This document shows positions 28,740 through 31,018 of a stretch of 64,000 bases of DNA, one piece after another. The stretch is taken from the NCBI GenBank assembly GCA_016200915.1, contig JACQDV010000007.1:15273-79272 (forward strand), read 5' to 3'. The DNA comes from Sphingobacteriales bacterium (lineage in GTDB: Bacteria; Bacteroidota; Bacteroidia; Chitinophagales; Chitinophagaceae). Made by a program: the position numbers and the translations under genes. The notes under the pieces are model-generated. The model did no database searches and was not told the origin of the DNA. It was given only the letters and a program-made list of their open reading frames with translations. How positions within the stretch are numbered: position 1 is the stretch's first letter; each line of letters starts with the position of its first letter.

Positions 28740-28802
28740 TGACCGATAGCTTAATTGGTAAAGCGGCGGGATGCAGATATGAGTTCGAACCTCATAAGGT
28801 CA
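28740..28802 (+). tRNA. Truncated tRNA-like element lacking an anticodon arm (D-arm plus T-arm only)
   Basis: Acceptor/D-arm tgaccga-ta-gctt-aattggta-aagc and T-arm atgag-ttcgaac-ctcat present; only ~14 nt between them. Confidence 0.3.
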
Positions 28803-28808
28803 ATGACT

Positions 28809-28880
28809 GGATGAATAGCTTAATGATAAAGCAGTCGCCTGTTAAGCGACAAGATAAAAGTTTGAATCTTTTTTCATCCG
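28809..28880 (+). tRNA. tRNA-Asn(GTT)-like, very AT-rich (T-stem aaaag/ctttt, T at position 56, no GG in D-loop, no CCA)
   Basis: Perfect 7-bp acceptor ggatgaa/ttcatcc; D-arm gctt/aagc; anticodon stem gtcgc/gcgac with loop ctGTTaa. Confidence 0.45.
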
Positions 28881-29166
28881 CAATGTTTGTAGTGAGTGAA
28901 TTCGATAATGAGAAAACAGGAATCAGTCAAAATTCATTACAAACAAATGGGTGCTTTGGCAGAATGGTTTTTATGTACCGGAGTGAAATCCCGGACATCG
29001 TGGTTCCCTGTCTGCCGACAGGCAGGAATTCCACGGGGCACCACAGAGGAATTAATAATGAATAATTATAAATGAAAATTATGTGCACTCGTGTAATGAA
29101 ATAGCAATAATGATGCTGCCCTTAATGGGTAACAATTATTCTATTACTATTTCAAAATAAAATAAA

Positions 29167-30234
29167 ATGGAAACACAACAGAAAATAATAAACAGCAACA
29201 GTGTATTTACAAACTCTTACTTAGACGGTAAAGCTTTGTACATGTACTGCTTTAACAGCATTCCTTGCATCAGTTTTATTAACCACATTAATGGGGAAAA
29301 AGCTTTTGAAGCAGTGAAAGAAAAGTATTCAACCATGATACAGTCTGTTCACAGCAGCCGTTATCATGAAAGAAAGAAAAAGAGGATGGAATTTGATGAA
29401 ACGGTTATTGTGCTGAACAATCAATGTGTACTGGAGTTTAATAGCCGCTATTGTGAGATTCTCCACAACTATTCATCCAATGAATTTGTGGAAGAGTTGA
29501 TTCAATTATTAAAAACGTTTAAGGAAAAACAACGCAGAAAACCATTGGAGATAAACCTGATTGTAAAGAGTGGCAGTTATATGGAGTTAAAAGCAATGGA
29601 AATAAAACGTACCAAGCTTGACCTGGATTTATATTATGAAGATGATTTTAAAGAAACAGATGAAATAATAAGAAAGCGCTTGAACCAGAAGAATGACAAA
29701 GGTATTGTTCTGCTGCATGGTTTACCGGGTACTGGCAAAACAACTTACCTGCGTTACCTCATTGGTAAAATCAACAAAAGGGTAATGTTTTTGTCGCCTA
29801 ATATCGCTGGTAGTTTGGTTGACCCTGAGTTCATTGATTTGATGGTGGATAATCCCAATAGTGTGGTGATCATTGAAGATGCGGAGAACATTATCATGGA
29901 CAGGCGCAGTAATTCTAATTCGGCAGTAAGTAACCTGCTGAATATTTCAGATGGATTGCTGGCCGACTTTCTGAATGTACAACTCATCTGCACCTTTAAT
30001 AATTCACTCACTTTAGTGGATAGTGCATTGATGCGTAAAGGACGACTGATTGCTAAATACGAGTTTGGTAAATTAAGCGTAATCAAAGCACAACGATTAA
30101 GCAATCATTTGAGAATGAACAACACCATCACCAAACCAATGACTATAGCAGAAATTGCCAATCCAGGAGAGAAAGAACATTACACAGGAAGAACTGAAAT
30201 TATTGGGTTTAAGCAACAGCTAATTGAAAATTAA
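29167..30234 (+). CDS. AAA family ATPase (single classic AAA module with ~190-aa N-terminal domain of unknown function)
   Basis: Walker A GLPGTGKT, Walker B VVIIEDAE, sensor-2 Arg region ALMRKGRL. Confidence 0.8.
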   Translation: METQQKIINSNSVFTNSYLDGKALYMYCFNSIPCISFINHINGEKAFEAVKEKYSTMIQSVHSSRYHERKKKRMEFDETVIVLNNQCVLEFNSRYCEILHNYSSNEFVEELIQLLKTFKEKQRRKPLEINLIVKSGSYMELKAMEIKRTKLDLDLYYEDDFKETDEIIRKRLNQKNDKGIVLLHGLPGTGKTTYLRYLIGKINKRVMFLSPNIAGSLVDPEFIDLMVDNPNSVVIIEDAENIIMDRRSNSNSAVSNLLNISDGLLADFLNVQLICTFNNSLTLVDSALMRKGRLIAKYEFGKLSVIKAQRLSNHLRMNNTITKPMTIAEIANPGEKEHYTGRTEIIGFKQQLIEN

Positions 30235-30274
30235 ATAACGCCCCTTTAGGGGAAGGGGTAAAACAACAAATGCA

Positions 30275-30787
30275 ATGGAACAGCAAAGGCGATGGCGCCG
30301 GTTAGATGGAACAAGGATTAAACAATCTATTGAAGACGAAGTGCGGCAGGTATTAATTCGGGAATTCAATGCCGGCATTCAACTGAAAGTTTGCATCGGA
30401 ACCGATAGCCAGGTAAAGGGAAAAGAAACAGAGTTTGCAACGGTAATTGTATTCATCCGTAAAGGGAAAGGTGGTTTCATGTACATACACAACGAAATCA
30501 CCAAACAAAAGATGAGCATTAAAGAACGGATGCTTACCGAGGTGGCAAAAAGTATTGAAGTAGCGTACGCACTATGTAACCTGTTCACTTTATATAATGT
30601 GGATATGGAAGTACATGCGGACATCAACACCAATCCCAATTTTAAAAGTAATGATGCACTCAAAGAAGCGATGGGCTACATTATGGGAATGCCTGCCTGG
30701 ATGACCAGGTCAGACAGGGGTTTTGCTTTCAAAGCCAAACCATTTGCCTTTGCCAGCTCCAGCTGTGCTAATAAAGTAGTGCAATAA
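30275..30787 (+). CDS. RNase H-like fold protein, YkuK/DUF458-like (putative nuclease)
   Basis: 170 aa; beta-strand motif KVCIGTDSQ reminiscent of an RNase H-like first catalytic Asp; family assignment from memory, not searched. Confidence 0.4.
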   Translation: MEQQRRWRRLDGTRIKQSIEDEVRQVLIREFNAGIQLKVCIGTDSQVKGKETEFATVIVFIRKGKGGFMYIHNEITKQKMSIKERMLTEVAKSIEVAYALCNLFTLYNVDMEVHADINTNPNFKSNDALKEAMGYIMGMPAWMTRSDRGFAFKAKPFAFASSSCANKVVQ

Positions 30788-30914
30788 GTTCTTTACAATA
30801 TTGTTGATGTGAGTATCAACGAAAAAAGGTATAGGCTATTGATGAATGTTTCAAAGCAACATAACGGTGCAGAAGTAGTAACTATCTGTATGCTGTTCAA
30901 TAGTACATATCACC

Positions 30915-30954
30915 AATTACGCTGTATGTCGAGGGTTCAACTCCCTTCCGGTGC
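30915..30954 (+). other. tRNA 3'-half fragment (T-arm gaggg-ttcaact-ccctt plus acceptor 3' strand)
   Basis: Seen in sequence; no matching 5' half upstream. Confidence 0.4.
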
Positions 30955-30957
30955 TTG

Positions 30958-31018
30958 TCACCGGTAGCTCAGTGGTAGAGCAACAGAAAATACGCAGGTT
31001 CGAATCCTGCTCTCGCCA
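30958..31018 (+). other. Anticodon-arm-less tRNA-like element (canonical D-arm gctc-agtggta-gagc and T-arm gcagg-ttcgaat-cctgc, ~10 nt between)
   Basis: Seen in sequence; acceptor strands do not pair. Confidence 0.4.

Follow-up and report, generated by a model that had tools for sequence, protein, structure and literature searches.

YrlA RNAs are circularly permuted mimics of transfer RNA (tRNA), with a closed acceptor stem and a tRNA-like fold, which are often encoded beside the gene for the RNA ligase RtcB and occasionally beside a Band-7 gene (bioRxiv 10.1101/312249). A Band-7-associated tRNA-like RNA beside RtcB, named b7a-tRNA, was predicted by Burroughs and Aravind and was unvalidated as of 2018 (bioRxiv 10.1101/312249). 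Supernumerary tRNAs are also found in tight arrays, termed L-arrays, which spread horizontally and occur in Bacteroidetes (PMC8421152). In Anabaena, translational stress induces the L-array and rtcB together, and the same repressor, TrcR, has a slipin gene and an AAA ATPase gene under its control; array tRNAs have been suggested to act as a "sponge" or in other non-canonical ways (PMC8421152, PMC10272220). Here we analyse a chromosomal region of a Sphingobacteriales bacterium (64,000 nucleotides (nt) of contig JACQDV010000007.1, assembly GCA_016200915.1, hereafter the window), in which an earlier note had described two tRNA-like elements lacking an anticodon arm, one on each side of a cassette composed of an AAA ATPase gene and an RNase H-like gene.

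The window was compared with 80 loci of Chitinophagaceae (L001-L080), retrieved with the Band-7 protein as query (73-82% identity). We think it likely that both features are functional, non-decoding tRNA-derived RNAs belonging to an RNA-repair island, in which the right-hand RNA would be a partner of the Band-7 protein and the left-hand RNA an accessory component.

Permuted tRNA-like modules upstream of the Band-7 gene

The D and T arms from which the earlier note built its two elements are real at both sites, separated by 14 nt on the left and 12 nt on the right. On the left they belong to one unit with its own acceptor helix, but on the right they do not. The right-hand D arm (30967-30981) and T arm (30994-31010) match the Rfam tRNA model with 29.6 bits (30963-31012), the anticodon arm being deleted in the alignment; the flanks that should form an acceptor stem (30958-30964 and 31011-31017), however, are not mutually complementary. 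Each flank instead closes a hairpin of its own, CCGGUG-cuugu-CACCGG (30948-30964) and UCUCGCC-aau-GGCGGGA (31011-31027), and in an alignment of 58 orthologous sequences 93% of cells agree with these hairpins but only 57% with the acceptor pairing of the earlier note, for which reason a mini-tRNA fold of this element was rejected. Because the flanks pair into closed hairpins and not with each other, the right-hand "element" is the junction between two adjacent circularly permuted tRNA-like modules. What the earlier note took for a 3' half and a 5' half of further tRNAs on either side are the complementary strands of these same two modules. In a few genomes the acceptor pairing holds by accident, as at locus L009, where the mini-tRNA fold scores 41.7 bits with the Rfam tRNA model because both hairpins there share CCCGG/CGGGA.

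Module 1 starts with CUGU (30922-30925) and a variable loop of 5 nt, and continues with a T arm (30931-30947), a closed acceptor hairpin of 6 base pairs (bp; 30948-30964), UA, the D arm, a single A and ACAG (30983-30986), which closes with CUGU to form a 4-bp stub of an anticodon stem; every junction is of canonical tRNA length. Module 2 consists of a T arm, a closed 7-bp acceptor hairpin (31011-31027), UA, a D arm (31030-31045), a single A and a complete anticodon-type arm (31047-31063) of 5 bp with the 7-nt loop CAGUGGA. Across the family this loop keeps the anticodon-loop shape Y-U-NNN-R-A with a free triplet (GAU, GUU, UAG, UAU, UUU and GAG among those seen). Module 2 is thus the only one of the tRNA-like units with the 5-bp anticodon arm and 7-nt loop of a canonical tRNA, as module 1 stops at its 4-bp stub and the left-hand element lacks the arm; conversely, a free 7-bp acceptor stem is found only in the left-hand element, the right-hand modules having closed hairpins instead.

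The order and spacing of the four arms (T1-D1-T2-D2) are present in 64 of 78 loci. In an alignment of 58 sequences (A2), ten nested helices comprising 45 pairs are paired in 95% of cells, compared with 40-48% in slid controls in which the partner was shifted by 1-3 columns. Compensatory changes occur at 37 of the 45 pairs (523 cells), and none of 500 shuffles reached the observed values. The nucleotides expected at a tRNA elbow are invariant, namely GGUUC.A..CC in both T loops and U8, A14, G18/19 and A21. The suggestion that the two sites could encode mini tRNA-like RNAs is supported, as both regions are conserved in many genomes and their substitutions preserve the structure. The left-hand and right-hand elements have no sequence relationship to each other.

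The closest match to a described family is that of module 1 to YrlA (RF02553), whose model positions 23-87 align with 30923-30987 at 41.1 bits (E ~7e-7, cmscan); the corresponding score is 33.2 bits at L009, and both are below the gathering score of 69 bits. The Ro60/Rsr-binding helix of YrlA (model positions 1-22 and 88-114) is unmatched, the 4-bp closing stem being followed at once by module 2. No Rsr/TROVE gene was found in any open reading frame (ORF) between 20.6 and 44.4 kilobases (kb), which includes the ~4 kb neighbourhood in which YrlA has its Rsr gene, or in other large ORFs of the window.

The modules form the core of a conserved structured region of ~530 nt (~30800-31330), which occupies nearly the entire gap between the RNase H-like/AAA genes and the Band-7 gene. 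Its 5' domain, aligned in 41 sequences (A5), has 34 predicted pairs with compensatory changes in 25. Directly 3' of module 2, the hairpin AGAAG-UACACCG-CUUCU forms an H-type pseudoknot, as its loop pairs with GGUG after an A-rich tail; loop and tail covary (CACC/GGUG in 30 sequences, CAUC/GAUG in 9, CAGC/GCUG in 6, plus UGCC/GGCA, CGCC/GGCG and CACU/AGUG). The topology of this pseudoknot recalls preQ1-I or luteoviral frameshift pseudoknots, with no Rfam match; a preQ1-I riboswitch was rejected, as there is no Rfam hit and the loop has just 7 nt despite the similar topology. The 3' domain, aligned in 35 sequences (A4), has 46 predicted pairs with compensatory changes in 36.

When the 3' domain was used as query (nhmmer), 76 of 81 sources, including loci without a nearby tRNA array, had a single match each, located upstream of Band-7; 71 of these matches are full-length. 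The right-hand RNA is present in ~75 Chitinophagaceae loci, usually also with RtcB, and its carriers include cultured members of Lacibacter (L. sediminis), Niastella (N. caeni, N. populi), Terrimonas (Terrimonas sp. R1) and Flavisolibacter (F. longurius). In every locus it shares the strand of Band-7 and stops 30-120 nt short of the Band-7 start (~120 nt in the window). As a whole it matches no family in Rfam 15, which returned the partial YrlA match and sub-threshold noise, and two pattern scans of IMG/VR for the large RNA gave zero or chance hits. Full-text searches of the literature returned no description of two such permuted modules in tandem, of an anticodon arm as in module 2, of the pseudoknot or of the two extra domains.

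Two further arrangements of such modules were seen. At L046 (3000-3200) there are three consecutive T-arm/D-arm modules rather than two, part of which ARAGORN miscalls as an intron-containing tRNA-Phe. At L063 (4300-5300), a metagenome-assembled genome of Ferruginibacter, six tandem units of ~150-190 nt stand upstream of a normal copy of the RNA, each with a conserved GUGUCGUAG...UACUUCG motif followed by a YrlA-like permuted module (T arm, closed acceptor hairpin, D arm). For annotation, the lesson is that permuted tRNA mimics can present themselves as adjoining "tRNA halves" and "armless tRNAs".

A conserved mini-tRNA within a long tRNA array

The left-hand element is a stand-alone mini-tRNA. 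Its acceptor helix is formed by AUUGACC (28738-28744) and GGUCAAU (28798-28804), plus a tandem G.A/A.A step; between the D arm (28749-28764) and the T arm (28779-28795), the 17-nt anticodon arm is replaced by a mini-hairpin with 2 bp and a 5-nt loop, GC-GGGAU-GC (28766-28774), and an AGAU linker. ARAGORN calls neither this element nor the right-hand element and its modules as tRNA. Homologues were found at L001, L011 and L024 and in 13 metagenome contigs, with a truncated copy at L071, and are always flanked by tRNA-Lys or tRNA-Arg(UCU) and by tRNA-Asn. No Rfam family matches a conserved mini-tRNA without an anticodon arm, and none was described in the literature covered by the full-text search.

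All copies share the D arm GCUU-AAUUGGUA-AAGC, one nucleotide, the mini-hairpin, AGAU and the T arm AUGAG-UUCGAAU-CUCAU. This core, including the 9-nt hairpin and AGAU, is near-invariant, whereas the acceptor helix varies with compensation, remaining at 7 bp in 13 of 15 sequences across 11 different sequence combinations. Two subtypes can be told apart, type I with canonical tRNA junctions and type II, to which the window copy belongs, with the additional G.A/A.A step; both have the 7-bp helix. The mini-hairpin itself is CC-GGGAU-GG in the family and GC-GGGAU-GC in the window, a compensatory G-C/C-G swap. Overall, 92% of cells are paired, against 21-46% in slid controls, and four pairs show double changes. 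Furthermore, the mean pairwise identity of the mini-tRNA (0.89) is higher than that of the neighbouring tRNA-Asn (0.84) and of the spacer (0.64) on the same contigs, which argues for purifying selection.

The best matches of the mini-tRNA, to the Ile(UAU), Lys, His and Arg(UCU) genes of the array, are weak, and an origin by recent deletion was rejected. The mini-tRNA is thus an old paralogue of the array tRNAs, with which it shares a U1-A72 acceptor stem. A stringent scan for further mini-tRNAs returned only the L001 homologue and one independent case (L074, 788-853), which is tRNA-Lys-like and has ~11 nt (AGAACUGUUCG) in place of the 17-nt anticodon arm.

The array around the mini-tRNA agrees with the definition of an L-array (PMC8421152), as the window packs 8 tRNA-type genes into 800 nt, orthologous loci have as many as 15, and RtcB is nearby. 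ARAGORN calls Ala, Asp, Gln, Lys and Asn (28324-28881), and orthologous arrays end in ...Lys-Asn-(Ser/Tyr/Cys)-Phe-(Trp). An unusual U1-A72 acceptor start (UGRCY...RGYCA-AC) is common to array tRNAs of many isotypes, both in the window (28324-28881) and in L001-L080, and Rfam tRNA scores are low (42-49 bits for Gln and Asp; Ala below gathering). This suggests that the array tRNAs are one family, whose members arose through gene duplication with changes of the anticodon. In many loci, the His and Arg(ACG) genes have between them a further tRNA-like gene, recurrent but not called, whose anticodon region is oversized.

The tRNA-Phe of the window has its T loop interrupted at 29007-29026 by a 20-nt near-perfect palindrome (consensus CCTGCCTGCCGGCAGGCAGG), which is lacking in its orthologues; ARAGORN overlooks the gene because of this insertion. 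The same palindrome, placed after G53 or after UUC, is found in the T loops of Gln, Lys, Asn, Asp and His-like array tRNAs, and in some spacers, at L023, L033, L038, L043, L052, L058, L062 and L069. Possible explanations are a mobile hairpin of the REP-like kind and, given the link of the array to RtcB, a small intervening sequence. The Pro(UGG)-like gene, also not called by ARAGORN, has a D stem of 5 bp and, in the window, the hairpin UCCCGCC-UCA-GGCGGGA (28291-28307) in place of its T arm, similar to the acceptor hairpin of module 2; its orthologues have a normal T arm, some with UCCCG...CGGGA hairpins inserted in the D loop.

The surrounding island and the proposed role

Coordinates are collected in Table 1. 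The window is bacterial chromosome, with genes for GH97, PNP oxidase, UmuDC, MetH, RpoN and similar proteins; a phage origin was rejected on these grounds and because blastn found no related phage record. The best protein match belongs to a metagenome-assembled genome of Sphingobacteriales/Chitinophagaceae. The RNA-centred island spans 24.3-36.2 kb by a Pfam scan of ORFs, and contains genes for a LigT/2H phosphoesterase, a PA0069-type radical SAM protein and a DUF433-PIN toxin-antitoxin pair, the tRNA array, the AAA ATPase and RNase H-like PF04308 genes, the 664-nt gap, the SPFH/Band-7 "slipin" gene and, past it, genes for a HEPN-like protein, a DEDDh exonuclease, DUF6169 and RtcB. The common order in the 80 loci is (LigT, radical SAM), tRNA array, RNase H-like and AAA genes in either order, intergenic RNA, Band-7 and RtcB, which is downstream of Band-7 in most loci, often directly adjacent, and 2.2 kb downstream in the window. 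We take the whole to be a chromosomal translational-stress and RNA-repair island of a Chitinophagaceae bacterium. PADLOC matched no defence system in the window.

Table 1 Features of the island in the window (positions are those of the window).
Feature	Position	Strand	Basis or remarks
IS200-type Y1 transposase gene	23233-23676	-	
DUF433-PIN toxin-antitoxin pair	26298-27376	+	
Long tRNA array (L-array type)	28241-29043	+	ARAGORN and Rfam; orthologous arrays of 5-15 tRNAs in ~60 loci
tRNA-Pro-like	28241-28317	+	array member
tRNA-Ala	28324-28397	+	array member
tRNA-Asp	28401-28473	+	array member
tRNA-Gln	28483-28556	+	array member
tRNA-Lys	28652-28726	+	array member
Left mini-tRNA	28738-28804	+	array member; Rfam tRNA model 35.0 bits (match 28740-28803), anticodon arm deleted in alignment
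tRNA-Asn	28809-28881	+	array member
tRNA-Phe(GAA)	28950-29043	+	array member, with 20-nt insert
AAA ATPase	29167-30234	+	Pfam; in most loci, before or after RNase H-like gene
RNase H-like PF04308 protein	30275-30787	+	Pfam
5' domain of the RNA	30800-30920	+	three hairpins, including GCAGA-AGUAGUAAC-UAUCUGUAUGC
Module 1, permuted tRNA mimic	30922-30986	+	Rfam YrlA match; helices 1-4 91-100% paired with compensatory changes
Module 2, permuted tRNA mimic	30994-31063	+	helices 5-9 of the 58-sequence alignment A2
H-type pseudoknot	31072-31100	+	hairpin AGAAG-CGCCUCA-CUUCU 31072-31088 (5-bp stem, 7-nt loop); loop 31078-31082 pairs with 31096-31100
3' domain of the RNA	31110-31329	+	~220-nt multi-helix; closing long helix 31110-31129 with 31310-31329
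SPFH/Band-7 (slipin) protein	31452-32549	+	Pfam PF01145; orthologues ~80% identical
RtcB RNA ligase	34723-36195	+	Pfam PF01139, 275 bits

Some details of the protein genes were noted in passing. No hydrophobic N-terminal segment is apparent in the Band-7/slipin protein by inspection of its sequence, and in its first ~130 residues the beginning of the SPFH domain seems to be partly repeated (IALVFKRGVYQRMLKEGNYWLW vs AVLFVDGKFTKVLEPGVHYWWK). The Y1 transposase gene, just upstream of the island and adjoining umuDC, is possibly a REP-associated RAYT. The toxin-antitoxin pair stands between the radical SAM gene and the tRNA array only in the window genome. A homologue of the PF04308 protein is encoded within a ~35-gene tRNA array of Stenotrophomonas phage DLP_6 (L116, record 108080-108562), right after tRNA-Lys(UUU), and the family may be a recurrent companion of tRNA arrays.

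From the observed sequences, secondary structures, conservation and synteny we infer that the right-hand region is transcribed as one RNA, that this RNA binds Band-7 and that it serves in repair. With T arms, D arms and tRNA junction lengths preserved, its two tandem permuted mimics would be expected to adopt the L-shape and elbow of tRNA, and with acceptor ends closed by loops they should carry no CCA end and undergo no aminoacylation. Such an RNA could be the cognate partner of the adjacent Band-7 protein and act as a Y RNA does for Ro60, as a tRNA-shaped scaffold, adaptor or bait which would bring tRNA-handling enzymes and damaged tRNAs to RtcB. To our knowledge, Y RNAs with their Ro60 partner are the only established tRNA-shaped scaffold RNA in RNA quality control. 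The mini-tRNA, in turn, would be an independent gene of the array, with free acceptor ends and an elbow, probably processed like a tRNA by RNase P, 3' trimming and CCA addition. Because decoding is impossible without an anticodon arm, it most likely has an accessory role, as a cofactor, substrate or competitor of an enzyme or toxin which recognises the acceptor or the elbow.

A more far-reaching version, which we offer tentatively and regard as doubtful, is that the 530-nt RNA represents an undescribed class of large ornate non-coding RNA and forms, with a soluble SPFH/Band-7 cage and RtcB, a tRNA-repair particle resembling Ro/Y RNA or a vault. The mimics, one of them displaying an anticodon loop, would then stand in for tRNAs and recruit or sense the enzymes that damage or repair tRNA, and the mini-tRNA would be a dedicated non-decoding cofactor.

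Alternative explanations and relation to known systems

A first alternative, which takes up the idea of att-site scars from the earlier note, is that integrations or deletions left the elements behind as functionless, degenerate pieces of tRNA genes, be they such scars or pseudogenes. It is true that they sit in a horizontally mobile type of tRNA array, that neighbouring array tRNAs are disrupted (the tRNA-Phe by its palindrome, the Pro-like gene by its replaced T arm) and that ARAGORN calls neither element. However, there are no flanking direct repeats, the check for a repeated tRNA 3' segment in 28200-31250 having come out negative, and no integrase among the proteins scanned at 20.6-44.4 kb. 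The supposed halves pair as closed stems, the right-hand region keeps its ten helices despite hundreds of compensatory changes in 58 genomes, and the conservation of the left-hand element exceeds that of the functional tRNA-Asn next to it and, by a wide margin, that of the spacers, while the protein identity of 73-82% among loci argues against an artefact of recent ancestry. Furthermore, in ~60 loci the AAA/RNase H-like cassette is regularly part of the same conserved island, with its two genes in variable order, and its PF04308 family reappears inside the DLP_6 tRNA array. The symmetric placement of the elements around it, which the earlier note called notable, is a by-product of gene order, given that the left-hand element occurs in 5 of 81 loci and the right-hand RNA in ~75. 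We consider scars highly improbable.

The main rival of the trans-acting partner RNA that we favour is a cis-acting leader of a Band-7/RtcB operon, a tRNA-shaped sensor through which a tRNA-targeting factor (by cleavage, modification or binding) would switch on the repair genes. The constant position on the same strand shortly before Band-7 would fit this, as would the lack of a clear intrinsic terminator between the RNA and Band-7, the anticodon-type loop exposed by module 2 and the response of rtcB expression to damaged tRNAs in other bacteria (PMC7790460). Nevertheless, ~530 nt with some 125 covarying pairs far exceed known leaders, the pseudoknot and the long closing helix resemble a self-contained particle, the triplet in the module-2 loop is not conserved, and Y RNAs, the nearest analogue, act in trans (bioRxiv 10.1101/312249). 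On balance a leader seems rather unlikely, although it keeps an appreciable chance. Less likely is that the permuted modules are precursors of split (two-piece) tRNAs, whose acceptor loops would be opened by RNase P and 3' processing to give CCA-bearing, possibly chargeable molecules. The acceptor stem of module 2 does have 7 bp, starts with G and is followed by an unpaired nucleotide, and in M. smegmatis a YrlA with a 7-bp stem is an RNase P substrate and acquires CCA (bioRxiv 10.1101/312249), but the short acceptor loops, which often are of GNRA-like sequence (GAAA and similar), look like stable caps, module 1 has a stem of 6 bp only, and an ARAGORN search for permuted tmRNA returned nothing. 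Split tRNAs are hence improbable. Also less likely than a leader is that the right-hand RNA alone is functional and the mini-tRNA is an array tRNA recently disabled by deletion of its anticodon arm and still undecayed. The shallow and restricted family (~89% identity), its modest covariation, the independent Lys-like truncation at L074 and the truncated copy at L071 would agree with this; the near-invariant core, the compensated acceptor helix, the swapped pair in the mini-hairpin, the identity above that of tRNA-Asn and the 7-bp helix kept in both subtypes speak against it, and we hold it to be unlikely.

Several observations weigh against functional, non-decoding RNAs partnering Band-7 and must be set beside the evidence for them. 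The ~530 nt might be divided among several RNAs, or might be the 5' leader of the Band-7 mRNA. YrlA is matched in part, at 41 bits where the gathering score is 69, with neither a Ro-binding helix nor an Rsr gene. The mini-tRNA was found in only ~6% of genome loci, and its covariation is modest, with 7-11 of 500 shuffles matching the observed values and with invariant D and T stems, because the family is shallow. Moreover, the unconstrained triplet of module 2 suits neither a specific decoy nor a decoder. The idea that the elements are decoys for anticodon nucleases does not apply to the mini-tRNA or to module 1, which have no anticodon loop, and is conceivable for module 2 only.

With a covariation-backed model, exact coordinates and cultured carriers, three questions become directly testable, namely the part played by SPFH proteins in RNA repair, the substrates that RtcB repairs in bacteria, and the reason for the association of long tRNA arrays with Band-7/RtcB genes. 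The mini-tRNA is in addition a natural test of which tRNA-handling enzymes need only the half of a tRNA that comprises the acceptor, T arm and elbow.

Among known RNAs, the two-module core is most easily compared with YrlA. Module 1 has the variable loop, T arm, loop-closed acceptor stem, U8/A9, D arm and anticodon-stem stub of YrlA, likewise without CCA, and is encoded beside RtcB-type repair genes, so that it may be expected to work like the tRNA-like domain of YrlA. The RNA as a whole departs from YrlA in score, Ro helix and Rsr gene; unlike YrlA, it has two modules in tandem, the second with a full anticodon arm, set within ~530 nt that include a pseudoknot and two extra domains, and its partner gene is SPFH/Band-7. 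The tRNA-like domain of transfer-messenger RNA (tmRNA) is also a tRNA mimic without an anticodon arm, and two-piece tmRNA has a similarly permuted order, with the T arm and 3' acceptor strand ahead of the 5' acceptor strand; tmRNA, however, has a free CCA end, charging, a tag ORF and the partner SmpB, and ARAGORN finds no tmRNA here. GOLLD and ROOL resemble the RNA in having several hundred nt and many covarying helices near tRNA arrays, but there is no Rfam match to either, they occur in different taxa, and the RNA described here has explicit tRNA mimics and a fixed protein-gene partner.

As a tRNA-like non-coding RNA adjoining a Band-7/SPFH gene in an RtcB neighbourhood, the right-hand RNA corresponds to the neighbourhood of the predicted b7a-tRNA. 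The latter, which has no Rfam family, was said to be "strongly resembling an authentic tRNA", whereas the RNA found here is permuted, double and much larger. Neither a conserved member without an anticodon arm nor a large tRNA-mimic RNA is described in the L-array papers (PMC8421152, PMC10272220). In other respects the island recalls the L-array system of Anabaena, with supernumerary, horizontally spread tRNAs linked to rtcB, a slipin gene and an AAA ATPase gene. The genes of Anabaena are dispersed and co-regulated, whereas the island has the same gene set in a physically clustered form.

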